Positions 31,526 through 59,939 of a stretch of 64,000 bases of DNA are shown here, in pieces (position 1 is the stretch's first letter; the number at the start of each line of letters is the position of its first letter). This DNA comes from Candidatus Latescibacterota bacterium (GTDB lineage Bacteria; Latescibacterota; UBA2968; GCA-2709665): positions 5,152,001 to 5,216,000 of the forward strand of contig OZ241917.1 of the NCBI GenBank assembly GCA_965203805.1, read 5' to 3'. The position numbers and the translations under genes are program-made. The notes beneath the pieces are model-generated. The model worked only from the letters and a program-made list of their open reading frames with translations. It made no database searches and had not been told where the DNA came from.

Positions 31526-31551
31526 TTCAGAAACAGGTGATCCACCCCACC

Positions 31552-35057: not shown

Positions 35058-35086
35058 TTGACAAAAAAAGCGAAATAATATATCTT
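35058..35086 (+). promoter_or_regulatory. Putative sigma70 promoter of the IS630 transposase
   Basis: TTGACA-17 nt-TATCTT inside the left IS end. Confidence 0.5.
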
Positions 35087-35135
35087 GTGCTCATAGGGAA
35101 TCGATCTCAGTTCAACTGTGGAGAGGAGACCGCCT

Positions 35136-42480: not shown

Positions 42481-43533
42481 ATGAATGACTCTACCAAGGA
42501 TGACCAGAAAGACGGTACAAATCTGAACGAGCAAGAATTGCAGGCCTTGGAGACGATCTTGAGGCGTACCGTTGCCTTCGAACAATATCGAAGTTTCGCT
42601 CAAAAACTTGAGCGTATTTCGCAAACCAAGAAGTCCAGTAAGAACCAGCGACGCTTGTCCGACCTCGAAGCCGAAGCGAAAGTGTGGCTCGATACTGTTA
42701 AATCCGCCGAAGCAGCCGGAGTCTTACACCCGAGCTATCGGTTTTTACTTACGTTGTACCCGATTGAACGTGTTCACGATGAACGTTGGGTCTGCGGCTG
42801 GTACGAGTCCGACCTTTGCGACATCAAGGCGGGGCTAGACGCCATACGTGAGATAAAGGGCCTTGGTGATGACGAGGACTGCACCATAGGGGAGAGGCCG
42901 GAGGATTGGGAGGAATTGGAACAGCAATACTCAGAAGTCTTAGACAGAAAGTTTGAAGAGGCGCTTCGGGAATTCGGTCTACACGAAATCGCTGATCTAT
43001 ACCACACGGACCGAGACGCATTCGACGCGCAACGTGAGCAAGGGCGTCGGCTCGCACTTGGGGAAATTTCCGATACGGAACAGATCGATGCCGCCGAGAA
43101 ACTGCTCGAAATTGAGGCCGAAGAATGTGCCAAAGCGGGAGCATATTACGCTGCAACGGTCATGATCGGGTCCGCATTGGAGGCTGCTCTCTTATTTGCC
43201 TGCCTGAAGCGCCTTGACGAAGCATTATCTGCCCGGAATCGATTGCCGAAATCTGAGCGACCCGATCGAGAGAATCCGAAGCGCTGGCGATTCGTGGAAC
43301 TGGCACGCATTGCAAATGAGGCGGGATGGCTACCGGATTTTGTAGTAGGGGATCGTAGGGTGTGCTCTCGATCGCTCATGGAAACTTTGCGGAGGCTGCG
43401 GAACCTGGCGCATCCGTCCCGTCACCTGACCGACGCGATAAATCGCGACATAAAAAGTGAGTATGCAAATGCGCGAGCCGCGTACAATCTGCTGAAGCGG
43501 CATTTGGCTGAACCTGGCGGCGATGCTCCGTAA
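42481..43533 (+). CDS. Hypothetical protein with C-terminal HEPN-like domain
   Basis: AYYAATVMIGSALEAALL helix followed by LRRLRNLAHP (R-x3/4-H HEPN-like motif); defence-island context. Confidence 0.55.
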   Translation: MNDSTKDDQKDGTNLNEQELQALETILRRTVAFEQYRSFAQKLERISQTKKSSKNQRRLSDLEAEAKVWLDTVKSAEAAGVLHPSYRFLLTLYPIERVHDERWVCGWYESDLCDIKAGLDAIREIKGLGDDEDCTIGERPEDWEELEQQYSEVLDRKFEEALREFGLHEIADLYHTDRDAFDAQREQGRRLALGEISDTEQIDAAEKLLEIEAEECAKAGAYYAATVMIGSALEAALLFACLKRLDEALSARNRLPKSERPDRENPKRWRFVELARIANEAGWLPDFVVGDRRVCSRSLMETLRRLRNLAHPSRHLTDAINRDIKSEYANARAAYNLLKRHLAEPGGDAP

Positions 43534-44154
43534 CTGTTAGAGTTATCAAGCGACTGATTTATTACACAACGCAGTCTCCGATCTCCCCTCAAAGTTGTGT
43601 GATGGGATGGATGTTTTTCGTTTTTCTCTTGTATCGTTGGTCGTGAAAACCTACCACGCGTATAAGTTAATTTTTTTTGTGGAAAAATAATGAGCCAAGG
43701 TCAAATTTGTAAACTTTGTGGGTGTGTCAGTAAACTTCAAAACTCTCATATATTGCCAGAGTTTCTATATAAATACTGTTATGATCCGATGCACCGGGCG
43801 ATCAAATTTAATACTCAGGAAATATCACGAATCATCGTACAAAAGGGAATTCGCGAACCTCTGTTATGTGTGAAGTGTGAGCGACATTTGAGCAAGATTG
43901 AGGGACGTTTTAAAACTGATTGGTATGATCGGGGTCGGTTGCCGGTACAATTTACGAAAGAATATTGGAGATTAGAAGGGTTTGATTATACTATGTTTAA
44001 GTTGTTTCATTTAAGCGTTCTTTGGCGTTGTTCGGTATCTAAAAACAAAGCATTCGCTACTGTTAGTTTAGGGCCTCACGAGCGACGCATCGCTCAACTG
44101 ATTCTCAGTGAAAATGCTGGCGAAGAACATGAGTATTCGATTATTGGCCAGCTT

Positions 44155-45319
44155 CTAGTGTTTCGTCCCAGGAATAACTTGCAAAAATAGTTCACTTGTC
44201 ATAGATTCCCTATAGCGAAAGGAGGAATCTATGGCCAGGGGACGTCCGTTAGCGCCACTGAGTATTGGGGATGAGGTTCGTGCGCAACTGGAAACCATTT
44301 CCCGTTCAAGAAGCATGTCGCACAGTCTTGTGTGCCGGGCGAAGATCGTTCTGATGAGTGATCAAGGGCTGTCGAATCAGCAGATCGGACGACAGCTTGG
44401 TCTGTCGGGAGCCACAGTCGGGAAGTGGCGCCGTCGGTTTTTAGAACAAGGTCTGATGGGGCTTTATGATGAATTGCGCCCCGGGGGGCCCCGCTCGATC
44501 AGCGATGAGCGCATCGCCTCGCTGATTCATGCAACGCTCAAAGACAAGCCGTCGGGAGCCACCCACTGGACCTGCCGCTCTCTGGCAGCCCAGACGCAAC
44601 TGTCCAAGTCCACGGTTCAGCGCGTGTGGAAAGCGTTTGGTCTACAGCCGCACCGGCAAAAACACTTCAAGCTGTCCAATGATCCGTTCTTTGTCGAGAA
44701 GGTACGTGACATTGTCGGACTGTATCTGAACCCTCCCGACAACGCGATGGTATTATGCGTTGACGAAAAGAGTCAGATCCAGGCATTGGAGCGAACGCAG
44801 CCGATATTGCCTTTGGGGTTGGGCTATGTGGAAGGGGTCACCCACAATTATATCCGGCACGGCACCACGACCTTGTTCGCCGCGCTGGAGGTCGCTTCCG
44901 GCAAGGTGCTGGCCCAATGCAAACCCCGACATCGACACCAGGAATTTTTACAATTCCTCAAATATATCGACCAAAACGTCCCGAAGGACCTTGACATTCA
45001 TCTCGTCGTCGACAACTACGCCACGCACAAGCACGAAAAAATCAAACGCTGGATCGCAGCCAGGCCCCGATACCACGTTCACTATACACCGACCTATGCG
45101 TCCTGGCTCAACCAGGTCGAGATCTGGTTCGGCATCATTACCCAGAAAGCCATCCGACGCGGGACCTTCAAAAAGGTGAAAGACCTCATCGCCAACATTC
45201 AGGATTTCACCAACCATTATAACGCCAACTCACGACCGTTCGTCTGGACCGCCACCGCAGAATCGATCCTTGACAAGATCACCAGACTTTTTGAACTAAT
45301 TCATGGGACAAGACACTAG
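44155..45319 (+). mobile_element. IS630-family insertion sequence (type B, copy 2)
   Basis: Same ends as copy 1; identical transposase protein; two visible substitutions in the left non-coding end. Confidence 0.95.
44231..45319 (+). CDS. IS630-family transposase
   Basis: Protein identical to 38987..40075. Confidence 0.95.
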   Translation: MARGRPLAPLSIGDEVRAQLETISRSRSMSHSLVCRAKIVLMSDQGLSNQQIGRQLGLSGATVGKWRRRFLEQGLMGLYDELRPGGPRSISDERIASLIHATLKDKPSGATHWTCRSLAAQTQLSKSTVQRVWKAFGLQPHRQKHFKLSNDPFFVEKVRDIVGLYLNPPDNAMVLCVDEKSQIQALERTQPILPLGLGYVEGVTHNYIRHGTTTLFAALEVASGKVLAQCKPRHRHQEFLQFLKYIDQNVPKDLDIHLVVDNYATHKHEKIKRWIAARPRYHVHYTPTYASWLNQVEIWFGIITQKAIRRGTFKKVKDLIANIQDFTNHYNANSRPFVWTATAESILDKITRLFELIHGTRH

Positions 45320-45819
45320 TCCACAATGATGCTATTGTTCACAGTCTTGTATCTCCGGCGTTTAGGCTTAGATTAGACGGTTTGCATGTATATCTATTGG
45401 CTTACGGAGGCTGTGAGTGGTTCCTCCATGTTTCACGACATAATAAGACCGAAGTTAAAGAATTAGGGTTTGGAAAAGACGGAAGTCTAATTCTTATACG
45501 ACAGTCGTTCTTAGAATCAATTACTGCAAGGCTTATGGATGTAGAATTGCGGACAAAAGCAGGTCAGGATTTCGTGCAGGCGTATAAGAAACTAAGGAAG
45601 AAGTATGAGTGTCTCGAATCACAATAGTTGAGTTTTAAATACTGATGATATTATCGCAGAACTGCAAATGGACTACATCGGTCTTGCGGCGAGAATAATC
45701 GACGTCCCTTTGTCCGGTGCAGTTACAAGTATGGCTTCTGACGGACTACTACTTGTAGAAGATTCAGTTACCGGAACTTAGTGCCAAACAATCCGCCACA
45801 TATCGCGGCCGAGAGACAG

Positions 45820-46020
45820 ATGAACATCGCGACCAGTTTTCCGGACGGTTGGGACGAGAAACGTGTCCGCCGGCTCTTGGACCATTATGAATCACAGACC
45901 GAGGACGAGGCAGTGGCGGAAGACGATGGGGTACTGGAAGACAAAACACAAACGCTGATGGCAATTCCCAATGCGTTGGTTCCGGCCGTGAAGGCGCTTC
46001 TTTCGCGACACGCCAGATGA
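45820..46020 (+). CDS. Small acidic hypothetical protein (possible orphan antitoxin-like)
   Basis: FPDGWDEKRVRRLLDHYESQTEDEAVAED...IPNALVPAVKALL; ATG at 45820. Confidence 0.5.
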   Translation: MNIATSFPDGWDEKRVRRLLDHYESQTEDEAVAEDDGVLEDKTQTLMAIPNALVPAVKALLSRHAR

Positions 46021-46750
46021 ACCCTTGGCTTGCTCGCGACCCTGGCGTATCCCACCCATCAACTCCCCGCACCATCCGACAACCGCTCTTTGTATCTGAT
46101 TAAATCCTTGCGAGTTATGGCCTCCGGCGGCACCAATTGGTATTGTCTCTCCGAGACGATTCGGATGTCGTCTCCATCCGTCTCGAATTCCAGCAGGGCA
46201 ATCACATTCTCACGCAAGATTTGTGCGCCTATGGGTCGGCAAATCAGGTCCGGCAATTTGTCGGCACAAAGCGCGATGTCCTGCTCGATCTGAATTCTGT
46301 TCAGTCTATCGCTGCCGCCCTTTGCCTGGACGGGTATCACATAGTGCGAGCCGCTCTTGTCGACACCCACGTAGATTTCGTCGGTCTCGACCTGACCCAT
46401 ATTTGGCACTGTCGTTCGGAGATGGTTCTGTAACGAATAGCACGCGATGCCAAGGAAGATGTCAATCAGGCGATTGTATCGAACCCGGGCCAAAACCGCC
46501 TGTTCATCATTGAACGCATATTTTGCGATGATTCCCGGAGTAGAGTCCGGCACCTTTGTCACCGAAAGATTCGGATTGGGCGTGAGCGGTATGTCGCTTA
46601 CCAATACAAACCTGTATTTGCCAGTTCCGGCAGGCCGAATAATCCATGTTTCGCCATCGGGTGCCTTGTCAAGAATACTCCTTGGAAGCGTCCTCCTGTA
46701 GCGAAACGTGTAGATCAAGTCACCCAGATTCTTCGGCAAGTCAACGTTGA

Positions 46751-48569
46751 GTCCACTCCGAAAAGTCGCATTTACTTATGCTGGTGAAAGTACTAAATTC
46801 GAAGTGTGAAAAGTCAGCAAGGATGAAGTATTGAGAATTACAATTGTAGAGAGCGTGGGAGAGGACAGATGTATAAGCCGAGTGCGTCGTGCAGTCAACC
46901 GGATCTGTTTTCGAATTTCGAGTCGCATTTCACACAGCGGAAGCAGGCGCAGTTGAATGATCCGAAGTCGTGGCATAATCTGTTTTACCAGCACATCACG
47001 TCAGAGATCGACGAGGATGTGTTTTCCGTGTTGTTTGATCCCGACATAGGCCGTCCCAATGCCCCGATTCGTCAGTTGGCGGCGATGATGGTCTTGAAGG
47101 AGGGCTTCGGGTGGAGCGATGCACAACTGTTCGAGCAATGTCGGTTCAATATCCTGGCGATGCGGGCATTGGGGTTGATGAATCTGTCTGATGAGGCGCC
47201 TGTGGAGTCGACGTATTATCTGTTCAAACAGTCCTTGTATGCGTATCAACTGAAAACCGGTCGGGATCTGGTTGGCGAGACCTTTAGCAGCTTAACGAAG
47301 ACGCAGGCCGACGCCTTTGGTGTGCTGGGTCAGCAAATCCGAATGGACAGTAAGTTAATCGGCTCGAACATTGCGCTATGTTGTCGGTTGCAGTTGGTGG
47401 TGGGTTGTTTACAACGGTTCTGGGGATCGTTGGACGAGGCCCGGAAGCGGCGATTATCAGGAAAACACCGGCAGGTTCTGGACGGAATGCTCAAGGTGAA
47501 GCCCCATCAGGTTGTCTACCGTCTCACCCGTGCTGAAAAAGGTGAGAAGCTACAGGAATACGGTGTGTTATTGAGCAGGCTTCAAGCGATCTATACCGAG
47601 AAAGACAGCGATCACTATGGTGTGATGGCGCGTGTTTTTGGAGACCAGTATTCGGTTTTATCCTCCTCCAAACAGGTGCTTCCCAAGCCGCCTGATGAGA
47701 TCTCCGCATCCTCCTTGCAGTCCCCCGATGACGAAGATGCGGCCTTTCGTAAGAAAGGGGAAGCGAAGGTGAAAGGATACAGTGTGAACCTCACCGAGAC
47801 CTGCGGTGAGGAGGGCCTCAATTTGATCACGGACATTGACGTCAAATCCGCGACAGCGCCCGACAACGCGTTTGTGCAAGCGGCCGTAGGGCGCACACAG
47901 CACGTGGTAGGGCAGGTTCGAGACGTGTCGATGGATGGGGCCTATAATGATCAATCCAACGCCGAGTACGCAAACGAACACGACAAGCAATTCTATTACA
48001 GTGGCCTGCAAGGAACCCCAGGGCGTTTCATTTATCGACGAACAAGAGAAGGCGTCGAAGTCATGGATCGAAATACCCAAGCCGTGCAGCTTGCCCAAGA
48101 ATACAAACCGGGGAAATACAAACTCATCATGGATGGCAAACCCCGATACTTTAAAGAACAGGCCATCGACAACTACATCAAACGCAAACAGAGTGAAGCC
48201 CTGCCTGAACACATCAGAAACCGACGCAATAACGTCGAAGCCAGCCTCTTCCAGTTGAGCTATTACACCCGAAACGGCAAAACTCGCTATCGTGGATTGA
48301 TGCCACATCAGCTGTGGGCGCACTGTCGTGGCTTATGGGTCAATCTCGTTCGGATCCAGAATTACCTCACCTCACCCACGATGCTCCCCGCATAAGATGC
48401 GACTTTTTTATGCATATCCTTGCCCCAAAACCACGCGAGCAACCTCGTAAACCGCCTCTGTGTTGATGGGCCGCAACCCGATGCACTTTCACCACGCAAC
48501 GCGACCTCTCAATACACAACACTGACACCTACACACGAAATCTTCCTGAACCCCCTTCTCGGAGGGGAC
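46751..48569 (+). mobile_element. DDE insertion sequence (IS1182/IS5/IS4-like, family uncertain)
   Basis: IRs GTCCACTCCGAAAAG and CTTCTCGGAGGGGAC (13/15); flanking direct repeat TCAACGTTGA at 46741-46750 and 48570-48579. Confidence 0.88.
46869..48395 (+). CDS. DDE transposase
   Basis: GRPNAP...GWSDAQL N-terminus, RMDSKLI, MDGAY, RNNVEAS, KTRYRG. Confidence 0.85.
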   Translation: MYKPSASCSQPDLFSNFESHFTQRKQAQLNDPKSWHNLFYQHITSEIDEDVFSVLFDPDIGRPNAPIRQLAAMMVLKEGFGWSDAQLFEQCRFNILAMRALGLMNLSDEAPVESTYYLFKQSLYAYQLKTGRDLVGETFSSLTKTQADAFGVLGQQIRMDSKLIGSNIALCCRLQLVVGCLQRFWGSLDEARKRRLSGKHRQVLDGMLKVKPHQVVYRLTRAEKGEKLQEYGVLLSRLQAIYTEKDSDHYGVMARVFGDQYSVLSSSKQVLPKPPDEISASSLQSPDDEDAAFRKKGEAKVKGYSVNLTETCGEEGLNLITDIDVKSATAPDNAFVQAAVGRTQHVVGQVRDVSMDGAYNDQSNAEYANEHDKQFYYSGLQGTPGRFIYRRTREGVEVMDRNTQAVQLAQEYKPGKYKLIMDGKPRYFKEQAIDNYIKRKQSEALPEHIRNRRNNVEASLFQLSYYTRNGKTRYRGLMPHQLWAHCRGLWVNLVRIQNYLTSPTMLPA

Positions 48570-48717
48570 TCAACGTTGAGTTCAGAGGCAAACGTAACGA
48601 TGTCCTGCCTAACAAAATTAACTTCACGTTGGCCCGATTGAAACCCGGCTTGGAAAATCGCTTCTATGATGGCGGAATAGCGATCAGTCGTGGAAATGTC
48701 GTGCTCCTCTCCAATAG

Positions 48718-50022
48718 TCAACGGCCGGGCCATTCGAGTGTCACGACTTCCTCCCTGAGCTGTTCCCCGGTTACCGTGGAAAGTCGGGTTCGAAAGAGAT
48801 CGATGCCGGTAACAGTATAGCCCAGGGATTTGGCGACACCGGCCAACAGTTCGCCGGTTCGGATCATGACCCGTAGATAGGATGCCTGATCACCCACCAC
48901 ATAGGCGAGCTTGGCACCGGGTCTGAGTGCCGGCCGCAATGACGCGAGATGCTTCGCCATCCCCCCGAAGTACAGGAGTGTGACACGCGAATACTGCCGC
49001 TCGAAACCTGATGTCTTGCCCATTGCAATGCGTCGATTCTCAATCTCATTCGCAAGTCTGCGTATTTCTATATTGTCCGCGATTTCGCTGTCGTCGGTAT
49101 CAGCTTTGTACACACCGCGAGTGTTCGACCTGACCAGGTTCTGCTTCAGCATCCTCAGTTCGTGTCGGTTCTTTATGAGGCCAAGGACGACGGATTCCAG
49201 GCGTGTCGTTCTCGTGTAGTCCTTCTCGTTGGGATACGGCGGAGAAGTAATCACAACGTCGACGGAGCCCGGTTCAAGGATGCCTTCCACGCTGCGAGCG
49301 TCGGCATTAATGATGTGACTGGCCGTGCTTGCCAGACCAACGTAACGGTGAACGTCCCTGACAGCAGTCCGTATACATTCAAGCCAGGCGTCCACGACCG
49401 GTGCATCGTATTTGATCTTCCCGACCCCGACCTCCGGCCCGAACTTCAGATTGCTGATACGGTGTACCAGTGCATTGGCAAGGCAAAGGCGACCGTAACG
49501 CTGTAACTGACGATTACCGTGCCGGTCGATAGCGTCCAAGAGTACGAGCGCCTTGTGGAGAGGGCGGGGGCTGATCGAATCCTTTAAAAGTATATGCGAT
49601 CGCTCAGCAGGCAGCTCCTTAAGCGTGGCCGTCGGATTTCCATTTGCAGCGAACAGTGGAAGATCCTTCCATTCGTCCAATCCCTGTTCTTTCAGCGTCT
49701 TCTTCGTGGACTGCGCAACCTTTTCCGCGTAGTCGAGCAACGCTTCGTGGCATACACCCCAGTCGACCTTCACCGAACTTGCGAAATACGCCATCGGATT
49801 CGGCTCGATCCCGATGCTGCCAATGCCGAGTTTCTTGCACTCAACGGTCGTGGTCCCGGTCCCGCAGAATGGATCCAGCACGGTGTGAGAAGGTCGCACG
49901 TCGAACCGGTCAAGATACTTGCGGACCAGATGAGGAGGGTACGACAGGACAAACCGGTACCAGTCATGAACTTCCCGGTCTTCCGGCCGCAGCTTGTTCA
50001 ATTCCTTCATCTTCGTAGCCAT
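48718..50022 (-). CDS. DNA amino-methyltransferase (probably N4-cytosine), intact
   Basis: VLDPFCGTGTT (motif I) precedes VITSPPY (motif IV). Confidence 0.88.
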   Translation of the reverse strand: MATKMKELNKLRPEDREVHDWYRFVLSYPPHLVRKYLDRFDVRPSHTVLDPFCGTGTTTVECKKLGIGSIGIEPNPMAYFASSVKVDWGVCHEALLDYAEKVAQSTKKTLKEQGLDEWKDLPLFAANGNPTATLKELPAERSHILLKDSISPRPLHKALVLLDAIDRHGNRQLQRYGRLCLANALVHRISNLKFGPEVGVGKIKYDAPVVDAWLECIRTAVRDVHRYVGLASTASHIINADARSVEGILEPGSVDVVITSPPYPNEKDYTRTTRLESVVLGLIKNRHELRMLKQNLVRSNTRGVYKADTDDSEIADNIEIRRLANEIENRRIAMGKTSGFERQYSRVTLLYFGGMAKHLASLRPALRPGAKLAYVVGDQASYLRVMIRTGELLAGVAKSLGYTVTGIDLFRTRLSTVTGEQLREEVVTLEWPGR

Positions 50023-50476
50023 TCGATCGATCTGTGTGAGATATAACTTATTATATTTAAATAGAATATTGGAATTAACGGCCGAGGAATCGGATTCGAA
50101 ACCGGGCGTGAATTCCGGTGTCTGCCGGTAATATAGTCAGTAACACAATGGATTGCAAGATTCCGAAGGGTTTCTAGAGGATCCGGATATGTGGCCTTGT
50201 GTTGTGTTGCTGCAACGTCGGCATCAGGGGGCAGCGCTGATTTTAGATTTCCCTTGACTCGAAGCGGATCTTGGATTTCCTTCTTTGTCTGGCGAATGAA
50301 TCTGGTTGCTGCGGTTTGCGGGTGGTGTTGGGGTTTGTGAATTCGCGAAATTGAGTCGTCCCGTTCACTCGACCTCCGGGCGCGAGGAATGAAGAACAGA
50401 GCCGGATGTTCTTCATCATTCGCGCGCGCTCACCTCGGGGTCCAGGAGACGGGTTTTTTGTCCACATTGGGATGGT

Positions 50477-52111
50477 ATGCGGTCCATATCAGAGTTTCTG
50501 AGCGGCAAGACGCTGTTTGTGACGGGCGCAACGGGGTTTCTGGCGAAGGGATTCGTGGAGAAGATCCTGTTTTCGTCCCCTGAAGTGGCGCGGATCTATC
50601 TCCTGATCCGCCCCCGGTTGCGTTCCAACGGAAGACTGGTTTCTGAAACGGAACGGCTGGAGACCGAAGTTCTTCAGTCTCGCGCGTTCGGGAGGCTTCG
50701 AGAGAAGTGGGGCGCGGCGTTTCCGTCGGTGATGGCCGAGAAGATCCAGCCGGTTGCCGGCGATCTGACCGAAGACGGACTGGGGATTGCCTCCGGCCAG
50801 CACGAGCGTCTTGTTGACGAAGTCGATTTCGTCGTCAACTTTGCGGGTACCGTGGTCTTCGACGAGCCCATCGACAGCGCGCTCGAGCAGAACACGATGG
50901 GCGCCGCGCGGGTCGTGGCTTTCGCGAAGGCCTGCCGGCAAGCCGCGCTCGTACACGTGTCGACGGCGTACGTGAGCGGACAGCGGACCGGGCGGATTCA
51001 GGAAACCCCTTTTCCCCAGGACCGGAGCGTAACGGACCTCATCAACGGAAGCGCGGCCGGATTCGACCTTCAGGGCGAGATTGACGCCATTCGGTCCTTT
51101 GCGAAGAAGGTGAGGGAGGCGTCCAATGAGCCCGAATTGGAGGCGGCATTCCTGAAGCAGCTCCGGCGCAAGGACCGCGGCAAACGCGTGACCGACTACC
51201 GGAAGGCGCACCAGGTCGAGGCCCTCCGCCAGCGCTGGATCCGGAAGCAACTGGTGGATGAAGGGATGCGGCGGGCCAGGCGCTTCGGATGGAACGACAG
51301 CTATACGCTCACGAAGGCGATGGGTGAGCAGTTGATCGTAAAGTCGCACGGCGATCTGCCAATGGCCATCGTCCGGCCGGCGATCGTGGAAAGCAGCCTC
51401 GAGGACCCGGAGCCGGGATGGGTCGAAGACCTGAAAGTCGCCGATCCGCTGATCGTCCACTACGGCAAGGGCCGGCTGTCGAATTTTCCGATCGATCCCG
51501 GAATCGTCCTGGACATTGTACCCGTGGATGTGCTGAACAACGCCGTCGCGGCGGTACTCCCGCAGGTACACGGGTCGCATGAGATGAAGGTCTACCACGT
51601 GGCGTCGGGCTCGCAGAATCCGGTGCGTGCGAGTGAAGTGGTGGAACACGTTTACGGGTACTTCAAGACCTCGCCCTTACGCGACCGGAAAGGGCAGCCC
51701 ATCGAAGTCCGGCCCTGGCAGTTCATCGGCAGACGGCGGTTCTCATGGATTGTCCTTCTGAAATACAAGCTTCCGCTGCGCTTCCTGAAGGCGGCCGTAG
51801 ACTATTTGCCAACCCGGTGGGTTTCCCGTTACAGGCGCCGGGTGATGGCTTTGGAAGCCATACTGGTCAGGCTCGAGTCCCTGCTCGACATTTATTGCGG
51901 GTACACCCATCTGGACTGTGAATTCGAGACGGAGAATACGCGCCGGTTGTTCCAGGGGCTGAATCCTGAGGACCAGAGGGTGTTCAATTTCGACGTGACG
52001 CGCATCAACTGGCGGGAATACTTCCAGGAGATCCACATTCCGGGATTGAAACACCACGTGTTGAAAGAAGGGGACGGGGCGGTTTCCACGCTGACCGCCG
52101 GGGCCGATTGA
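50477..52111 (+). CDS. Fatty acyl-CoA reductase (alcohol-forming FAR; NAD_binding_4 plus Sterile domain)
   Basis: FVTGATGFLAK, HVSTAYV, YTLTKAMGEQL, IVRPAIVES, EPGWVE, DIVPVD, C-terminal FNFDVTRINWREYF..IHIPGL typical of plant/animal-type FARs. Confidence 0.88.
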   Translation: MRSISEFLSGKTLFVTGATGFLAKGFVEKILFSSPEVARIYLLIRPRLRSNGRLVSETERLETEVLQSRAFGRLREKWGAAFPSVMAEKIQPVAGDLTEDGLGIASGQHERLVDEVDFVVNFAGTVVFDEPIDSALEQNTMGAARVVAFAKACRQAALVHVSTAYVSGQRTGRIQETPFPQDRSVTDLINGSAAGFDLQGEIDAIRSFAKKVREASNEPELEAAFLKQLRRKDRGKRVTDYRKAHQVEALRQRWIRKQLVDEGMRRARRFGWNDSYTLTKAMGEQLIVKSHGDLPMAIVRPAIVESSLEDPEPGWVEDLKVADPLIVHYGKGRLSNFPIDPGIVLDIVPVDVLNNAVAAVLPQVHGSHEMKVYHVASGSQNPVRASEVVEHVYGYFKTSPLRDRKGQPIEVRPWQFIGRRRFSWIVLLKYKLPLRFLKAAVDYLPTRWVSRYRRRVMALEAILVRLESLLDIYCGYTHLDCEFETENTRRLFQGLNPEDQRVFNFDVTRINWREYFQEIHIPGLKHHVLKEGDGAVSTLTAGAD

Positions 52112-52132
52112 CCGGCTTGCGGGTTTTTACGA

Positions 52133-54073
52133 ATGAATCGAAACATTAAAGCGCCCGTGCACAGAATGTTGTTGCAGGATCCTGCCCGTCTGGTGGCCGC
52201 TTACGATCAGGCGGCCTCGGAACTGATCGTCGCCGTTCAGCCCGAAGGCTATTTCAAGGGGTGGACGGCCGAGGATCTGGCGTGGCCGGCCGGCGGCGCC
52301 GACGACGTCGGCCTCGAGGGTCTGCGCAAACGGGCGCGGATTGTGGACGCGATCTGCCGGGGTGTACCCGGTCTGCGGGACAACCGGCTGAAGGAGGCGC
52401 ACGACCATTTCGTCGAACTGACGCCGGCTTACCACGAAGGGAACCGGATCTACCTTCGGCTTCGGGATGAATTCATTGAAGCGGGCGCCGGAACAGGCCC
52501 GGACTTTCTGAAACTGTATCAGTCCCTCTACGTGGAGGCGCTCGCAAAAGGAGATGATTTCTCGCCCGACCCGGCAGAAACCGCACTGGCGCGAGCCCGG
52601 ATCTCCCGGGTACCGCTGTCGCACGCCAGGGCGGTTGCGGAAGCGCTGCCCAGCGTGACCACGGACGACGATCCGCGCTGGAGTGTGGAATACGCCTGCA
52701 CGGTGAGTGGCGAGACCTGGAGCGGAACCCTCCGGGAACTCCTGGAAGACGTGGCGCAGCGGACCCTGCACTACATCGCGGCCGGAGAGCTTCTCGCCAC
52801 GCGCTACAACACCTACAATAACCTGGGCTGGTTCGGCAGTTCGGTGTGGAAGGTAGTCGCGGAAGCCGATGTGCGCCTGTATCGGATGGAGGGATCGGAT
52901 CCCGCGCGCTCGGAGATGCTGAAGGCCGACGTAGACCTGGCACGCGGCATGCTCGTGGAGTTCCTGGCGGCGCACCGGGAGGATCCCGCCCGGCTCAGGC
53001 CGGAGAACTACTGGTACGGGCAGCCGTACAGCTATCTGACGCGGGACATGATCGACCTGAGCGTCCGGATCGCGGACGGCTTGAATTCGGCGGCAAGGGA
53101 ACTGGACGGGGTGACCGAAATGGCACTCCCGCCCCTGCTGGCGGGCGCCCGCACGGGCCGGTTTCTGGACTACGCCCACGTGGGCGTGACCGAGGAACAG
53201 ACGTCATTCCAGAGGAAAATCAGGATGTTGCGCTGGGCGAGACGGTGCTGGCGGGTGGGGAAACGCAGGCGCCGGATCGCGGAGGAGGACCTCACGCCGT
53301 CCCAGAGGCACGAACGCGCGTGGGAGGTCTGGCTGGATTGGTCCCGGGACACAATGAAAGCATTCGGCATCCGGCTGGACGTCACAATCGCCCCGATGTT
53401 CCGGACACTCGTCCGGGAAATGGACCTTGCGGCCGGCGGCCGGCGGATCCTGTTCCTGCCCTCGCACCAGAGCATGCTCGAGCATTTCGTGGTGTTTTCC
53501 GTATTCAACGATCCGGTCTTTCTGGATGCGATGGGTTGGGATCGGTCCCGGCCTGTCGTACAACTCGCCCGAACGGGCCTGGCGAAGTCAACGTCGGTGA
53601 AGATCGGGTCCCGAGAAATCAGTATCTTCGGGATGTCTCCGGACAGGTTCGACCGGATGTTCGAGACCGTCGACGGTTTCATCACCCGGGACAGCGTGGA
53701 CATCTCTTCGCATACGATTCCGCGAATCCTGCAGGAGATGGAGCGGCGTCCGGGTGTGATTTATCCGATGGGCACGACGGCTTCCTTCGACGTGCAGTTG
53801 TTCCCGCTGCAACACGCGCTTTTCGCGAAACTGCCCCAGGACGTCGTGATGGTCCCGATCGTGTTTCGGGGCAGCCATGCGCTATGGCCCAAGTGTCCGG
53901 CGCGCAATCTGAATATCAATCCCGGCGTGATCGAGGCGGTGATCCTGCCCCCGATGCCGGGTGAGACCACGCTGCTGCCGCGCCGCCGGTCCCTGCGCAT
54001 CCAGCTGGAGGCCGCCAATCTGCTTCAGGCGGTGCATATTTCGAATCTGCTGAATCCGGAACCCTCGCGATGA
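52133..54073 (+). CDS. Unknown N-terminal domain plus PlsC/LPLAT-like acyltransferase domain (candidate DHAP acyltransferase)
   Basis: LFLPSHQSMLE (HxxxxD variant), IYPMGT (FPEGT variant), MVPIVFRGSHALWPK; sits between FAR and AGPS. Confidence 0.6.
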   Translation: MNRNIKAPVHRMLLQDPARLVAAYDQAASELIVAVQPEGYFKGWTAEDLAWPAGGADDVGLEGLRKRARIVDAICRGVPGLRDNRLKEAHDHFVELTPAYHEGNRIYLRLRDEFIEAGAGTGPDFLKLYQSLYVEALAKGDDFSPDPAETALARARISRVPLSHARAVAEALPSVTTDDDPRWSVEYACTVSGETWSGTLRELLEDVAQRTLHYIAAGELLATRYNTYNNLGWFGSSVWKVVAEADVRLYRMEGSDPARSEMLKADVDLARGMLVEFLAAHREDPARLRPENYWYGQPYSYLTRDMIDLSVRIADGLNSAARELDGVTEMALPPLLAGARTGRFLDYAHVGVTEEQTSFQRKIRMLRWARRCWRVGKRRRRIAEEDLTPSQRHERAWEVWLDWSRDTMKAFGIRLDVTIAPMFRTLVREMDLAAGGRRILFLPSHQSMLEHFVVFSVFNDPVFLDAMGWDRSRPVVQLARTGLAKSTSVKIGSREISIFGMSPDRFDRMFETVDGFITRDSVDISSHTIPRILQEMERRPGVIYPMGTTASFDVQLFPLQHALFAKLPQDVVMVPIVFRGSHALWPKCPARNLNINPGVIEAVILPPMPGETTLLPRRRSLRIQLEAANLLQAVHISNLLNPEPSR

Positions 54074-54113
54074 GAAACCGGATCCGGCCGATTGTTGTCA
54101 TCGGGAGTACGTA

Positions 54114-55961
54114 ATGCCTGAGTGGGGAATCGCAGCGGTTGTCGCCGCGACAATTCTGCTGATCGCGCTTCTGCCCAGACGGAGGGGCGCCGGAAGCGAA
54201 CCGGACGAATTCTTCGATCATTCCGAAGCGGAACGGTTTCCCCACAAGTGGGGATACACGGACACGCGGTTCGAGTTTGTGGACGATCGCACGCTGAAGG
54301 TGACCGGCAACAGGTACCCCATCTCGGGATACCGCATGCCGTTTCTGATCGACTTTGTGGAGGACGTGCTGGGCATTGCGATCCGGAAGGAAGACGCGTT
54401 TGCCGAGCGCGACGAAATTGAAGCGACGGAACCGAACGTGGACGCGGCGTTCGGGAACGCGGTGAAGGAGCGGTTCGGAGACGGGCAGGTTTCCTTGGAT
54501 CCGCAAGCCAGGCTGGTGCACAGCCACGGACAGCTGAGCGTGGAGGAAGTGTATCGCGTGATGTATGGCGATTCGCTACCCAGGCTGGTCGACCTGGTGT
54601 TCTATCCCGAAGAGGAGGCCGACGTCAAGGCCATGATCGACCTCGCCAACGAGCATAACGTGTGCCTGGTGCCCTATGGCGGCGGGACGAACGTGAGCGG
54701 TGCGCTGGCGTGTCCGGCCGACGAGCGGCGCACGATCGTTTCGGTGGATATGCGCCGGATGGACCGGGTGATGTGGATTGACGAGGCCAATCTTCAGGCC
54801 GGCGTCGAGGCGGGGATTTCGGGCAAGGCGATGGAGAGAGCGCTTGGAGAGCGGGGGTACACCTCGGGACACGATCCCGATAGCGTGGAATTGTCCACCA
54901 TGGGCGGCTGGATCTCGACCAATGCGAGCGGGATGAAGAAGAACCGGTACGGCAATATCGAAGACATCGTGCTCGAAGCGACGCTGGTGACGCCTACCGG
55001 CGAAATCGCAACCCGCCAGGTCACGCCCAGAAACTCCACGGGCGTCCAGCCGCGGGGTCTGCTGTTCGGAAGCGAAGGCAATTTCGGTATTATCACCACG
55101 GCGGTGATCAAGATTCATCCGATCCCCGAGGCGCGCAAGTACGGGGCGCTCGTCTTCCCTGCTTTCGAGAAGGGCGTTTCTTATCTGAAGGCGCTCCGGC
55201 AGACCGGCATGCTGCCCGCGAGCATCCGCCTGGTCAACAACAACGAATTCCGGTTCGGACAGGCCCTGAAAGGGGAACCGACGTTCCTGAAAGGCGTCAA
55301 GGAAAAGGTTCAGAAATTCGTCCTGTTGAAGGTGATGGGTTTCGATCCGATGAAGATGGGCGCGTGTACCATCGTGATGGAGGGCACGCATGACGAAGTG
55401 CGCCAGCAGGAACGCACGATCTTCAGCCTGGCGAAGAAATACGGCGCCAAGAGCGCGGGCGCCAGCAACGGCAAGCGAGGCTATTCGCTGACGTTCGGCA
55501 TCGCCTACATTCGTGATTTCCTGAATCAATACGGCATCCTGGGCGAAACCTTCGAGACGTCTGTTCCCTGGGACCGGATCCACCAGGTTTGCGATGCGGT
55601 ATCGAAGGAACTGGTGACGCAGGCCACGATGCACAACGTGCCGGGGAAACCCTATCTCTCGTACCGGGTGACCCAGACCTACCATACGGGCGTCTGTATC
55701 TATTTCACCATGGGCATTTACGGCAAGGGCCTGGAAGCGCCGGGCCGGACGTTTCACGTGATCGAACACCGGCTTCGGCAGGTGATCCTGGACAACGGAG
55801 GGTCTTTGTCGCACCACCACGGCGTTGGAAAGGTAAGAAAGGACTTCCTGCCGCAGATTCAGAGCGATAACAGTATCCAGGTCATGCGTCAGGCCAAGAA
55901 CGCGATGGATCCGAACAACATCTTCGGGATCAGAAATGGTGTTTTCGGGGAGATTGAGTGA
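54114..55961 (+). CDS. agps: Alkyl-dihydroxyacetonephosphate synthase (AGPS/ADAS), FAD-linked, with N-terminal membrane anchor
   Basis: WGYTDT, PYGGGTNV, GHDPDS.E.STMGGWISTNASGMKKNRYGNIED, ASIRL, RVTQTY, GGSLSHHHGVGK. Confidence 0.88.
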   Translation: MPEWGIAAVVAATILLIALLPRRRGAGSEPDEFFDHSEAERFPHKWGYTDTRFEFVDDRTLKVTGNRYPISGYRMPFLIDFVEDVLGIAIRKEDAFAERDEIEATEPNVDAAFGNAVKERFGDGQVSLDPQARLVHSHGQLSVEEVYRVMYGDSLPRLVDLVFYPEEEADVKAMIDLANEHNVCLVPYGGGTNVSGALACPADERRTIVSVDMRRMDRVMWIDEANLQAGVEAGISGKAMERALGERGYTSGHDPDSVELSTMGGWISTNASGMKKNRYGNIEDIVLEATLVTPTGEIATRQVTPRNSTGVQPRGLLFGSEGNFGIITTAVIKIHPIPEARKYGALVFPAFEKGVSYLKALRQTGMLPASIRLVNNNEFRFGQALKGEPTFLKGVKEKVQKFVLLKVMGFDPMKMGACTIVMEGTHDEVRQQERTIFSLAKKYGAKSAGASNGKRGYSLTFGIAYIRDFLNQYGILGETFETSVPWDRIHQVCDAVSKELVTQATMHNVPGKPYLSYRVTQTYHTGVCIYFTMGIYGKGLEAPGRTFHVIEHRLRQVILDNGGSLSHHHGVGKVRKDFLPQIQSDNSIQVMRQAKNAMDPNNIFGIRNGVFGEIE

Positions 55962-55980
55962 CGGCTGATGGGCCTCTCGA

Positions 55981-56010
55981 GGTGGGGGCGCCCGGCCGGT
56001 CGCCCCGACA
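55981..56010. repeat. REP-like hairpin between AGPS and the SDR
   Basis: GGGGCGCCCGGCCGGTCGCCCC imperfect palindrome; similar hairpins near 26527, 27126 and 29856. Confidence 0.45.
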
Positions 56011-56036
56011 ATGCCGAATCGCAGGGAAGGCAAATC

Positions 56037-56843
56037 ATGTTCAACGGTAAAGTGGTCGCGATAACCGGGGCGTCGTCGGGTCTGGGCGCAACGCTGGCTC
56101 TGGCGTTCGCGGAGGAAGGGGCGGACCTGGCCCTTTTCGCCCTGGACGACGGCGTCCACGAAACGGCGGCTGACTGCAGGGAGCGCGGCAGCCGCGTGAC
56201 CACGGAAACGGGTGACGTCGGAAATCCGGCGGACTGCGAGGCCTGGATCGACGCCGCGGTATCCGGACTGGGAGGCGTGGACTACCTGGTTGCCTGCGCG
56301 GGAATCAGCATGTGGGCGCGGTTCGACGAGGTGGAGGACCTGACGATTTTTCGCAGGTTGATGGAAACGAACTATCTGGGCATCGTGCATTGCGTATACT
56401 ACGCATTGCCCCACTTAAAGGCGCGCGACGGGATGGTGGTGGCGATTTCCTCCATCCAGGGCAAGATCGGCGTGCCCCTGCATACGGGTTACGTGGCGTC
56501 CAAGCACGCCGTTCAGGGCTTCTTCGAGTCGCTGCGGACGGAACTTCTGGACACGGGCGTGGACGTGCTGACGGTACTGCCCCACTGGCTGCGCGGGACC
56601 AATCTGCGCAAGGCGGCTTTCGGAAAGGATGGCGGGGCTCTCGGCGGGTCGAGCCGCAAGCACAGCAGGGAGTCGATATCCCTGGACGACGCAAGCACGG
56701 CCATCATCGAAGCGATGAAGAAGAGGAAGCGGGAACTGATCATCCCGTTCAAGCTGAGATTTCTGCCCTGGCTGCACCTGATCAATCCGAAGATCGTCGA
56801 ATATCTGGTCACGCGCGGGGTGGCGAAACAGGAAAAAGGGTAG
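56037..56843 (+). CDS. SDR oxidoreductase, DHRS7B-like (candidate acyl/alkyl-DHAP reductase)
   Basis: ITGASSGLG, METNYLG, VAISSIQGK, YVASKHAVQGFFESLRTEL; start MFNGKVV 56037. Confidence 0.75.
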   Translation: MFNGKVVAITGASSGLGATLALAFAEEGADLALFALDDGVHETAADCRERGSRVTTETGDVGNPADCEAWIDAAVSGLGGVDYLVACAGISMWARFDEVEDLTIFRRLMETNYLGIVHCVYYALPHLKARDGMVVAISSIQGKIGVPLHTGYVASKHAVQGFFESLRTELLDTGVDVLTVLPHWLRGTNLRKAAFGKDGGALGGSSRKHSRESISLDDASTAIIEAMKKRKRELIIPFKLRFLPWLHLINPKIVEYLVTRGVAKQEKG

Positions 56844-56882
56844 CGGCTCGTCGGTTCGGCGGGTTGCGGCGCGAGGCCGGAT

Positions 56883-57572
56883 TCAGGAAAAGACCCCGTC
56901 CACATCCAGGTGTTCTTCAATCAGTTCGGGCATGCGTCCGAGATGCCCGGCATCCACGTCCACGCCCGGATCGAATGGCACGATGCCCAGTGACGCGGCC
57001 CCGGTCAGGCGCGTGACCACCTCCGGACTGCTGCGGGCGGCCCTCGGGTCGCCGGGTCCGGTCGTATTGTAGACGACGCCCCGAATTTCCAGGTTGCGCG
57101 TCTTCGCGGCCTCGAGCGTGAGCATCGTGTGGTTGATGGCGCCCAGCGCGGCACGCGCGACCAACAGCAGTGGCAGGTCAAGACGGTCGGCGAGGTCCGC
57201 GACCAGGAAGTCATCACGGATCGGAACCAGCAGGCCGCCCACACCCTCGACCAGTACGGTTTCATGCAGGCGGATCAGGCGGTTAAACGCATCCACGATG
57301 GGTTCCAGCGGAACCCGGCGGCCCTCCAGTTCGGCGGCCACGTTCGGCGACAACGGCGCGGCGAGCCGGACGGGATTGACGAGTTCGAGCCCATCTGAGA
57401 CGCCCGCCGCCTTCACCAGGAATCGCGCATCCGCCGCGCCGCCCGACGACACGGGCTTGAACACACCCACGTCCACGCCGCGTCCCCGAAGAACGGCGGC
57501 AATTCCGGCGGTCACGGCGGTTTTGCCCGCGCCGGTGTCCGTGGCGGTAACGAAGACTCCCCTGGATTGCAT
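56883..57572 (-). CDS. bioD: Dethiobiotin synthase
   Basis: FVTATDTGAGKT, FKPVSSG, VEGVGGLLVP, LGAINHTML; start MQSRG 57572. Confidence 0.93.
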   Translation of the reverse strand: MQSRGVFVTATDTGAGKTAVTAGIAAVLRGRGVDVGVFKPVSSGGAADARFLVKAAGVSDGLELVNPVRLAAPLSPNVAAELEGRRVPLEPIVDAFNRLIRLHETVLVEGVGGLLVPIRDDFLVADLADRLDLPLLLVARAALGAINHTMLTLEAAKTRNLEIRGVVYNTTGPGDPRAARSSPEVVTRLTGAASLGIVPFDPGVDVDAGHLGRMPELIEEHLDVDGVFS

Positions 57573-57592
57573 GGTCGTATTGCCCCCGGAAG

Positions 57593-58963
57593 TCAGGCCG
57601 CGTTCGTCACGGCGCGGATGGACTCGCAGGCGATATCCAGCAGCTCTTCGAGATCGCGGTCGGAAATGGCCAGGGGCGGCATGAGGACAATCGTGTCTCC
57701 CAGCGGGCGGATGAGCAGACCCCGTTTCCGGGCCTCGCCGCAGACGCGGTTGCCGACTCTCTCCGACGTCGGATACGGCCGTCCGCCAGCGCTGTCGGCA
57801 ACCAGTTCGATGCCGGCGATGAAACCGCACCGGCGAACGTCCCCCACATGCGGGAGGGTCCTGAAGCGCTTGAGTCCGCGAGCGAGACGCTCGATCCTGG
57901 GTTGCAGCGACGCCAGTACGTTGCGGCTCTCGAATCGTTCGATGGCTGCCAGCGCCGCGGCGCAGCCGAGCGGATTGCCTGTATACGTGTGGCCGTGGAA
58001 GAACGTCTTGCCTTCGCTGTCTTCGCCCAGAAACGCATCGAAGATCCCGCCGGTGGTCAGCGTGGCGGCCACAGGCAGGTATCCGCCCGTGAGTCCCTTG
58101 CCCAGGCAGAGAATGTCGGGCGCGACCCCTTCTTTCTCGCAGGCGAACATGGCGCCGGTGCGACCGAAGCCGGTGGCGATCTCGTCGGCGATGAGCAGCA
58201 CGTCGTGCGCCCTGCAGAGGTCGGCGACTCCCTTCAGATAGCCCTCGGGATGGACCAGCATCCCACCGGCGCCCTGGATCAGCGGCTCAATGATGAAGGC
58301 GGCGATGCGGTGGGCGTTTTGTTTCAGGATTTCTTCGACCGCCCTCAAACAGCCCTGGTTGCACGCGCTTGCGCGGGCGCAGAACGCGCAGCGATACGGA
58401 TGGGGCGACGGCGCATTCAGCGACGGAAAGAGGAGCGGGCCGTACGCCTTGTGGAAAGTGTCGATATTCCCAACGCTCATGGCGCCGACGGTGTCGCCGT
58501 GATAGCTCCGCTCGAGGCTCAGAAAGCTGGTCTTGCCGGGTCGCGGGTCCGGTCTCTGCCGCCAGTACTGGAAGGCGATCTTGAGCGCGATCTCAACGGC
58601 GCAGGCGCCCGTGTCCGAATAGAACACGTGGTCCAGACCATCCGGTGTGATCGCCACCAGTTTTTCGGCCAGCCGGATCGCGGGTACGTTGGAAAGGCCC
58701 AGCAGCGTGCTGTGCGCTACCTGGTCCAGTTGTTCGCGGATGGCGGTGTCGATTTCCCCGGCGCGGTGGCCGTGTACGTTGCACCACATCGAGGAGTATC
58801 CGTCCAGATACCGGTTACCGTCGATGTCCTCCAGATAGACGCCGTCCGCACGAGCGATGACGATGGGGTCTTCGCTCGCATACGTGCGCATCTGGGTGAA
58901 CGGGTGCCACACGAGGCGCCGGTCGAGGTCTTTCAGGCGGGCCTTGTCGTCCGGGGACATCAT
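57593..58963 (-). CDS. bioA: Adenosylmethionine-8-amino-7-oxononanoate aminotransferase
   Basis: [49 protein letters not shown]; adjacent to bioD. Confidence 0.93.
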
Positions 58964-59003
58964 CGTATGGATGGGGATTCGGTACGGGCGGCGAATGGTC
59001 TGG

Positions 59004-59939
59004 TTACCGCCTGCTTGCGCCGATGCTCTCAAGGATGTCAATGGGCATTTTGCAGACCATGGTGTACGCGGGGTCGTAGACGTTGCCCACGTCGTACTCC
59101 ACGGCCTGGCCCATGAGGATGTGTATGGACCGGGTATCCAGGCCGTAGTCTTCCTGGAGGAACCGGATCAATTCGGTGGTGGCGTGTTGGGTTGCCTGGT
59201 CCAGCGGGCGGGCGTTGCCCACGGCCATCACGTGGGTTTCGTTGATCGCCCTGGGCCAGTGGATGGTTTTGCCCTTCAGCAGGCGCAGCGTAAAGGTGAC
59301 GTCGAAGGAGATTTCGATGCCCGTGCCCGCGATTTCGCCGTCGCCCTGAACCGCGTGGCCGTCGCCGATGTGGAACAGCCCGCCCTCGACGAAGACGGGG
59401 AAGTACACGGTGACGCCCTGGACGAATTCCCGGTAGTCCATGTTGCCGCCGTGGGTATCGGATGTGGCGGTGGAGATGGCTTGGCCGCGGGGCGGCGCCA
59501 CGCCGAAGCAGCCCACCATCGGCTTCAGAGGGATCCGGAGCCTGCCGATGGGGAGGTCATCGAAGCCGATGGGCGTGGCCGTGTTGTTGTCGAAGTCGAT
59601 TTCCCAATCCAGGAGGCGGCCGCGGTCGTCGTCGAATTCGGGCGTGTACCCGAAATCCAGCACGTTGGCGGCGACAATGCCCGACGTGTATCCGACGTTG
59701 CGGTTGGGCGCCAGTTTGTCGAAGGTTACGGCCAGCGTATCGCCCGGTTCCGCGCCCTCGAGGTAGAAGGGTCCGGTCTGGGGATTGCCCGCCGGCGTGA
59801 TCGGTTGGCCCGAGGCGTCGCTTCCGCCGGCGTCGACGGTGGTGGTTGAGATGGTGTCGCCGCTGGCGACGTGCAGCACCGGGTCGTGCGCGCCCATGGC
59901 AGTGTGATAGGTTTCAGGGACGAATTGGTGGTGGGCCAT
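59004..59939 (-). CDS. Acetamidase/formamidase family protein
   Basis: NPQTGPFY.EGAEPGDTL, HGGNMD, GDGHAVQGDGE; start MAHHQF after AAGAGGAG. Confidence 0.88.
   Translation of the reverse strand: MAHHQFVPETYHTAMGAHDPVLHVASGDTISTTTVDAGGSDASGQPITPAGNPQTGPFYLEGAEPGDTLAVTFDKLAPNRNVGYTSGIVAANVLDFGYTPEFDDDRGRLLDWEIDFDNNTATPIGFDDLPIGRLRIPLKPMVGCFGVAPPRGQAISTATSDTHGGNMDYREFVQGVTVYFPVFVEGGLFHIGDGHAVQGDGEIAGTGIEISFDVTFTLRLLKGKTIHWPRAINETHVMAVGNARPLDQATQHATTELIRFLQEDYGLDTRSIHILMGQAVEYDVGNVYDPAYTMVCKMPIDILESIGASRR

Follow-up and report, generated by a model that had tools for sequence, protein, structure and literature searches.

P0001, a divergent PlsC-like acyltransferase encoded beside AGPS in Latescibacterota and a candidate source of acyl-DHAP

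The stretch of DNA considered here, referred to throughout as the window, comprises 64,000 nucleotides of the genome of a Candidatus Latescibacterota bacterium (assembly GCA_965203805.1, contig OZ241917.1, positions 5,152,001 to 5,216,000), and coordinates are those of the window unless a locus is named. It contains a gene for an unannotated protein of 646 aa, P0001, that lies between the gene for a fatty acyl-CoA/acyl carrier protein (ACP) reductase (FAR) and those for an alkyl-dihydroxyacetone phosphate synthase (AGPS) and a short-chain dehydrogenase (SDR). We propose, with confidence that is about evenly balanced, that P0001 is the first-step glycerolipid acyltransferase of its clade, which would provide AGPS, and probably bulk lipid synthesis too, with acyl-dihydroxyacetone phosphate (acyl-DHAP), DHAP being the putative acceptor. 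The proposal draws on the fold of the protein, a conserved pair of His and acidic residue, the operon in which the gene lies and its distribution across the phylum. A broader reading, put forward tentatively and at somewhat less than an even chance, is that a class-level lineage of Latescibacterota dropped GpsA, PlsX and PlsY, has no PlsB, and makes its ether and perhaps its ester glycerolipids by a peroxisome-like acyl-DHAP route, with this family as an unrecognised DHAP acyltransferase whose novel N-terminal domain is part of the enzyme.

In the pathway envisaged P0001 would acylate DHAP, with acyl-CoA as the probable donor, to give 1-acyl-DHAP, with His445 acting as general base and held in place by Glu450 (an Asp in most relatives). 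The fatty alcohol would be supplied by FAR and exchanged by AGPS for the acyl group of acyl-DHAP, after which the SDR would reduce the keto group to give 1-alkyl-sn-glycerol-3-phosphate (1-alkyl-G3P), and possibly 1-acyl-G3P too, with an ordinary PlsC and CdsA completing the lipid. As the clade is without plsX, plsY, gpsA or a PlsB-like gene, the acyl-DHAP route would be expected to feed bulk membrane lipid as well, which is a wider role than that given in the initial annotation of the gene, where P0001 was seen as a supplier of acyl-DHAP to AGPS.

The gene and its family

The reading frame, its length and the motifs quoted in the initial annotation were all found as described, and all four of the quoted strings are present in the translation: HQSMLE at residues 445-450, YPMGT at 544-548, RYNTYNNLGWFGSSVWKV at 224-241 and PENYWYGQPYSYLTRDM at 290-306. 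The gene can be taken as real because a word-indexed search returned 96 homologues, nearly all of 626-685 aa, and because it occurs in 132 of 168 genomes from the phylum. None of the 96 has a precomputed Pfam domain; where the homologues are named it is as "hypothetical protein", save for one JGI record that is named 1-acyl-sn-glycerol-3-phosphate acyltransferase. In an alignment of P0001 with 43 homologues picked for diversity (44 sequences, referred to as A1) columns are on average 56% identical, with invariant residues in both halves of the protein. The gene and the parts of its product are as follows.

52133..54073, plus strand: P0001, two-domain protein of 646 aa, member of an unannotated family
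52133..53200, plus strand: N-terminal helical domain, residues 1-356 (domain model)
53201..53365, plus strand: two basic helices, residues 357-411 (helices 358-384 and 389-411 in the model)
53366..54073, plus strand: acyltransferase core, residues 412-646 and stop codon (5kym superposition, Foldseek and hhalign)
53465..53482, plus strand: motif I, HQSMLE (H445 to E450), presumed catalytic His with its acidic partner, placed by hhalign on HxSxxD of PlsC
53762..53776, plus strand: degenerate motif III, YPMGT (Y544 to T548), in place of FPEGT(R) and aligning with FPEGTR in both PlsC and a FAR-ACS-AT fusion (ACS, AMP-binding domain; AT, acyltransferase domain)

As far as sequence searches reach, the family is isolated in sequence space, since searches of Pfam, NCBIfam, the PDB and 1.84 billion representative proteins gave no relative outside it. 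P0001 matched no Pfam family even at E<=10, no NCBIfam model and, with phmmer, no chain in the PDB, whilst a profile of the family found only two PDB chains at chance level (E 0.44 and 1.7). Against the 1.84 billion representatives the same profile gave 65 matches at E<=0.001, seven of them at least 600 aa long and the remainder fragments of the same family, with no HMMER link to any other family. The statement in the initial annotation that the N-terminus matches nothing recognisable therefore holds at the sequence level, and it extends to the whole protein, which does not reach the gathering threshold of the acyltransferase family PF01553. The ESM Atlas points to PF01553 clusters with a score of 0.91, which is a lead only as it comes with just 97-98 shared features.

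An acyltransferase fold closest to PlsC

The full-length AlphaFold2 model, built on A1, has a mean pLDDT of 89.1 and a pTM of 0.91, and Foldseek ranks PlsC of Thermotoga maritima (5kym_A, E 5.6e-4) as its best match in the PDB, followed by plant and algal glycerol-3-phosphate acyltransferases (GPATs), human GPAT1 and PatA. On re-alignment of the top Foldseek chains 5kym_A superposes on model residues 357-646 with Z 15.9 and an rmsd of 3.5 A over 231 of 241 residues. PlsC also came first when 48,161 representative chains were searched without recourse to Foldseek (5kym_B, Z 15.1, rmsd 3.0, 222 of 232 residues), 5 Z units above the next rows. The GPATs score far lower, at Z 8.9 for 1iuq (squash GPAT) and for 8e4y, 9.3 for 8e50 (GPAT1) and 8.8 for 8ia1; no solved GNPAT was seen in the structure result lists, where GPAT1 stands at Z 8.9-9.3 against 15-16 for PlsC. 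The combination of AlphaFold and Foldseek proposed in the initial annotation has in this way returned an acyltransferase fold for the C-terminal domain. The likeness to PlsC and the LPLAT group on which that annotation had remarked is real, although it is visible only by structure, and it takes in residues 357-646, about 290 aa and not the approximately 230 first suggested.

Profile comparison adds a faint trace of the same relationship. When the C-terminal columns of A1 were compared by hhalign with 30 PlsC sequences of the phylum the match was weak (E 0.0022, probability 13%) yet collinear, pairing HQSxx(D/E) with HxSxxD, LARTGL with AKxELF, YPMGT with FPEGT and VVIIPxxFRG with PVVPvxIsG, and the N-terminal columns used as a control gave E 0.33. 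A single BLASTP comparison with a canonical FAR-ACS-AT fusion aligned the region of motifs III and IV (E 0.004). On the strength of the model P0001 belongs, as a highly divergent acyltransferase, to the PlsC/GPAT (LPLAT) fold, and it carries an extra helical domain at its N-terminus.

A structure so much nearer to PlsC than to the GPATs, in a gene that adjoins those for AGPS and the SDR, would also be expected of an sn-2 acyltransferase acting on 1-alkyl-G3P (or 1-acyl-G3P) in a PlsC-like step that follows AGPS and the SDR. It seems unlikely that this is the role of P0001, as a canonical PlsC with its HX4D and PEGTR motifs intact is encoded in the same genome and in all relatives that were checked, the sn-2 step in eukaryotes is carried out by shared AGPATs, and the clade would be left without any first-step enzyme.

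Motif I is well kept. H445 is invariant in A1, and its acidic partner in 97 family proteins is D in 61 and E in 19, with the remaining 17 outside the search pattern. The consensus of the family is thus the canonical HX4D, and the HxxxxE of P0001, taken in the initial annotation as a non-canonical motif and a cue to altered acceptor specificity, is by sequence comparison a conservative substitution of a subclade. It is ruled out as a marker of specificity, because both residues occur inside operons that hold FAR and AGPS (22 D forms and 14 E forms among the related loci).

Motif III is another matter. P540, Y544 and T548 are invariant in A1, with YPMGT in 31 proteins, YPMAT in 24, YPAGT in 12 and other variants besides; the family has M, A, T, Q or E where the Glu would stand, Thr in place of the Arg, and frequently Ala or Leu for the Gly, which is missing from about 30 of the 86 proteins matching the motif III pattern. 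In known enzymes, E. coli PlsB among them, the motif III Glu helps to bind G3P. This degeneracy, together with the failure of PF01553 to detect P0001, would fit a catalytically dead relative of the acyltransferases with a structural or regulatory part to play. Such a protein would hardly be expected to keep H445 invariant, with D or E as its partner in every one of the 80 proteins matching the motif I pattern, nor to keep the further invariant core residues R480, D507, D514, R579 and H582, and we regard a non-enzyme as highly improbable.

The two basic helices at the start of the domain superpose on the two-helix motif at the N-terminus of PlsC (the alignment begins at model residue 357 and chain residue 2). 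There are 17 Lys or Arg residues between positions 355 and 415, and no transmembrane segment was found in P0001, where the highest hydropathy is 1.13; the helices probably serve in peripheral membrane binding.

The operon and its conservation

The four genes run in the order FAR, P0001, AGPS and SDR on one strand with gaps of 21, 40 and 6 bases. The neighbours of P0001 are as follows.

50477..52111, plus strand: FAR, fatty acyl-CoA/ACP reductase, 544 aa, first gene of the operon (Pfam NAD_binding_4, E 4.7e-63, and Sterile, E 9.7e-16)
54114..55961, plus strand: AGPS, alkyl-DHAP synthase, 615 aa (Pfam FAD_binding_4 and FAD-oxidase_C)
55968..56843, plus strand: SDR, short-chain dehydrogenase, 291 aa (Pfam adh_short, E 1.2e-42; NCBIfam PRK06181, 279.9 bits against a cut-off of 215)

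The AGPS matches the peroxisomal alkyl-DHAP synthase 4bby over residues 44-608 (phmmer, E 4.7e-150). In eukaryotes an SDR-type acyl/alkyl-DHAP reductase completes the ether-lipid set, and the SDR of the operon is a candidate for that function. The dedicated ether-lipid enzymes of eukaryotes are given as FAR, GNPAT and AGPS, and the AGPS operon of Myxococcus xanthus is reported to carry a FAR-GNPAT fusion, MXAN_1675 (PMC13012113). By analogy P0001 occupies the operon slot that in eukaryotes would be filled by GNPAT.

It has been possible to compare 80 loci out of 164 relatives found, a few of these loci being cut by contig ends; the records of the relatives are almost all metagenome-assembled genomes of Candidatus Latescibacterota. 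FAR lies directly upstream of the family gene in 43 of the 80 loci, AGPS is downstream in 36 and the SDR in 33. The other 37 loci, whose family proteins are 42-46% identical, have neither FAR nor AGPS within 6 kb, and their neighbours vary (a hybrid histidine kinase, PhyH and others). In all five genomes tested where the family gene is unlinked AGPS is found elsewhere, and in the four examined where the family gene lies elsewhere AGPS still adjoins the SDR.

FAR in the five unlinked genomes (G001-G005) lies within a frame of about 1400-1450 aa, which in four of them also includes a PF01553 domain. One such frame was scanned, that of G001 (L132, 5314-9603, 1429 aa), and it runs FAR, AMP-binding (ACS) and acyltransferase (PF01553); it adjoins lgt and a DAGK/YegS gene, and is ElbD-like with another order of domains.

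The constancy of FAR as a neighbour, which is the highest of any gene and extends to seven loci without AGPS, would suit an enzyme that acylates something other than a glycerol phosphate, such as the FAR-made fatty alcohol (giving a wax ester) or an intermediate of an unknown lipid, and so would the degeneracy of motif III, which in known members binds the phosphorylated acceptor. There is, however, no FAR nearby in 37 of the 80 loci, the bacterial wax synthases known to us are of another fold, and both the supply of acyl-DHAP and the first acylation would be left unexplained; an acceptor of this kind is judged very unlikely.

Phyletic distribution and the missing first acylation

The distribution of the family was surveyed in 168 genomes of the phylum, grouped in families (f1-f4, f8, f14 and others), with AGPS called at E<=1e-100, plsY by PF02660, gpsA by PF07479 and plsX by a score over the cut-off. 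P0001 homologues are confined almost wholly to Latescibacterota. AGPS is present in 124 of the genomes, and its co-occurrence with the family is close: 123 have both, nine the family only, one AGPS only (a genome 78% complete) and 35 neither. The classical genes of the first acylation show the opposite pattern. Of 29 genomes with plsY 28 are without the family, and gpsA is likewise found in 29 genomes and plsX in 34, with neither plsY nor gpsA in any member of f1-f4 or f8 and plsX in only one of them. These five families, which hold 131 of the 132 family-positive genomes, form a class-level clade that includes the window genome (plsY and gpsA in 0 of 133, plsX in 1 of 133), whilst other lineages of the phylum retain all three genes. 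The family-positive genomes are without plsY and gpsA save one and without plsX save two, and no PlsB-like gene was found in those that were checked.

The window genome itself is a single contig of 5.87 Mb and 99.8% complete, and no PlsY, PlsX or GpsA was found in it. Its sole PF01553 gene is a canonical PlsC of 247 aa that adjoins cmk and has the motifs NHASFAD and PEGTR, and exactly one PF01553 match is found in all eight of the f2 genomes sampled. CdsA is also present. Because PlsC and CdsA are kept, as checked in the window genome, and PlsX, PlsY and GpsA are absent, the clade needs lysophosphatidate or its alkyl analogue and is without a recognised first-acylation enzyme or GpsA. P0001 is the one conserved protein there whose fold is that of an acyltransferase and whose distribution is suitable.

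Both the family and PlsY are absent from eight genomes, of which five retain PlsX (57-93% complete), two belong to f4 (75% and 78%) and one is G036 (96%), which has a FAR-ACS-ACP-AT fusion instead. Five family-positive genomes are labelled as other phyla, and four of them are without PlsY, their completeness being unknown. A search of the genome for CarF/PEDS1 (PF10520) gave no match, which is uninformative as the control was likewise silent everywhere.

Only one genome, G039, has the family together with plsX, plsY and gpsA. Its family gene lies between FAR and AGPS in a complete cassette that ends with the SDR (L143, on a contig of 7133 bases), which points either to an ether-lipid cassette that can be transferred or to an error in binning.

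The acceptor

The same hole in the pathway and the same complementarity would be accounted for by a first-step enzyme that acts on G3P, that is a GPAT that replaces PlsX and PlsY, with acyl-DHAP made by a side activity or by another enzyme. Such an enzyme would find its substrate in a genome that encodes glycerol kinase, and it would sit easily with the persistence of the family where AGPS or the SDR is missing and with the 37 of 80 loci in which the family gene is unlinked to AGPS. We consider it rather unlikely for three reasons, each of which favours DHAP. The usual biosynthetic source of G3P, gpsA, has been lost across the clade along with plsX and plsY; AGPS, which needs acyl-DHAP and is well conserved, would have no maker of it in the f1 and f2 genomes, as these hold no other candidate; and G039, which keeps the standard module, nevertheless has the gene in a cassette with FAR, AGPS and the SDR.

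The supply of acyl-DHAP proposed in the initial annotation is therefore in keeping with the fold, the conserved His, the position of the gene and the phyletic pattern, whilst the argument from the motifs, which was also advanced for it, is unsupported. A number of observations weigh against DHAP as the acceptor and against a first-step role. The closest solved structure is an sn-2 acyltransferase and not a GPAT or GNPAT, and as motif III lacks the Glu and Arg of FPEGTR, binding of the acceptor cannot be read from the known rules. G3P should be available as an acceptor given the glycerol kinase in the genome (675.8 bits against a cut-off of 590). In genomes of the f4 type a FAR-ACS-AT(PF01553) fusion could itself supply AGPS, and the family gene there stands alone, away from AGPS and the SDR. 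The independent events behind the phyletic pattern are few (a single class together with f8 and one genome of f14), the PlsY model was silent in a Bacteroides control though it reaches near E 1e-50 within the phylum, and the G039 cassette lies on a 7.1-kb contig that may have been mis-binned. Finally, the five carriers of the family without AGPS that were checked have no SDR orthologue either, so that an acyl-DHAP reductase in these would have to be another protein.

Genomes with the family but without AGPS

Nine genomes carry the family without AGPS, and two of these, each assembled in two contigs, reach 96% and 99% completeness. When five of the nine were searched again at a loose threshold only generic FAD oxidases of 26-31% identity were found and no AGPS, and an SDR orthologue was also absent from these five. 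The gene order at two such loci (G042 and G013) is ACS, FAR, P0001 homologue, HAD, zinc-dependent alcohol dehydrogenase (ZnADH), LarA-like protein and DAGK. In G036, which has no member of the family, a FAR-ACS-ACP-AT(PF01553) fusion is followed by the same HAD, ZnADH, LarA-like and DAGK genes. The equivalent positions of the P0001 homologue and the PF01553 domain indicate that AGPS as such is not a fixed partner of the family.

The LarA-like protein is found in eight of the 168 genomes, namely seven family carriers without AGPS and G036. The module that follows FAR and the acyltransferase consists of HAD, ZnADH (397-410 aa), a LarA-like Lar_N protein (515-538 aa) and DAGK/YegS, and it is mutually exclusive with AGPS and the SDR; it may represent an AGPS-independent route to a lipid, possibly an ether lipid. 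The loci are as follows.

L091 (G042), 2531-12717: HAD module
L092 (G013), 5560-16169: HAD module
L144 (G036), 1507-10415: HAD module
L076 and L040: further HAD module loci

The N-terminal domain

When modelled alone with 34 homologous segments the N-terminal domain has a pLDDT of 85.6. It is made up of helices, among them two long ones at 56-116 and 200-252, with one beta hairpin at 186-199, in agreement with the helical N-terminus of about 350 aa that was first described. The pTM of the full model, 0.91, suggests that the domain is packed in a fixed way against the catalytic domain. An invariant block (W294, Y295, G296, Y299, Y301, L302, T303, R304, D305 and D308) is among the best conserved parts of the family.

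In the structural check proposed at the outset, Foldseek found no PDB match for the domain model at E<=0.001. The VIA wide search returned a flat list of generic helical bundles, the best at Z 10.0 over 100 residues, which is below a meaningful level for helical proteins, and the ESM Atlas gave no usable match. Judged by the model, then, the domain is one for which these searches found no solved relative, and it may still have a known fold. A degenerate FAR, as another candidate for the domain, is ruled out as the domain is all-helical.

It had also been suggested that this domain could serve as a scaffold or channel to AGPS. This is not supported, as its invariant residues are retained in the 37 of 80 loci without FAR or AGPS nearby and also in near-complete genomes without any AGPS, and the presence of the family in the latter argues against a role in AGPS docking.

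Comparison with known systems

Although P0001 shares the fold of 5kym over the whole PlsC chain, the two-helix motif included, together with the His and acidic residue of motif I and the order of motifs I to IV, it is only 9-11% identical to it, reads YPMGT at motif III and has 356 additional residues at its N-terminus. Nor is it the housekeeping PlsC orthologue, as the true PlsC is a separate gene elsewhere in its genome. The encoding of an acyltransferase with FAR and AGPS recalls GNPAT/DHAPAT and the FAR-GNPAT fusions (FARAT, such as MXAN_1675; PMC13012113). P0001 differs from GNPAT and FARAT in that no relation in sequence can be detected and its structure lies closer to that of PlsC, with GPAT1 at a Z of about 9, and from FARAT also in that it is not fused to FAR and its all-helical N-terminal domain is no FAR Rossmann domain. 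The ElbD-type proteins (FAR-ACS-ACP-AT) have a PF01553 domain whose slot before HAD, ZnADH, the LarA-like protein and DAGK is shared by the family, as is a weak trace of sequence in motifs III and IV; P0001, in contrast, stands alone, with a different N-terminal domain and no carrier-protein domain. An equivalent first acylation is proposed for it to that of PlsB/GPAT1 and of PlsX/PlsY, in keeping with a distribution complementary to plsX, plsY and gpsA, but it shares only the core fold with PlsB/GPAT1 (Z about 9) and is unrelated to PlsY, an integral membrane protein that uses acyl-phosphate (PMC5700162).

Surveys of bacterial ether lipids search for homologues of agps and elbD and report matches in Latescibacterota (PMC11868695; bioRxiv 10.64898/2026.06.23.733905), and the portions of their text available make no mention of the P0001 family or of a source of acyl-DHAP. 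Neither the family nor a loss of plsY in Latescibacterota was found described in the literature, supplementary tables lying outside that search. The family would have been missed by surveys because it is invisible to Pfam and NCBIfam. The lipid pathway of this lineage appears to have been rewired, and if the role proposed for P0001 is correct then the missing enzyme that makes acyl-DHAP can be named, the acyltransferase superfamily gains a new branch, and a bacterial clade exists without the textbook module of GpsA, PlsX and PlsY. This would bear on the evolutionary replacement of lipid pathways and on where the ether-lipid pathway of eukaryotes has its roots among bacteria.

Surroundings and expression of the operon

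The AGPS of the operon has a hydrophobic N-terminal segment at residues 2-21 (54114-54180, hydropathy 2.05), which is a possible membrane anchor. Beyond the SDR, bioD-like (AAA_26) and bioA-like (Aminotran_3) genes on the minus strand (56883-59041) are convergent with the operon at its end and seem to have no relation to it. Upstream, an island of low GC content (about 0.50 as against 0.60-0.65) extends from 30000 to 50000 and ends just before the operon; it contains a DDE_3 transposase (44231-45319), a DUF772 transposase (46869-48395) and a DNA methyltransferase (48718-50022, minus strand).

A scan of the operon for promoters and terminators gave results at chance level. Contigs from RNA libraries of relatives (90-99% alike; three metatranscriptome runs from two studies) cover parts of all four genes, and one spans the junction of FAR and P0001; carry-over of DNA is possible, and the contigs do not prove a single transcript. 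The DNA runs that contain the region 50000-57200 are mostly sponge metagenomes.

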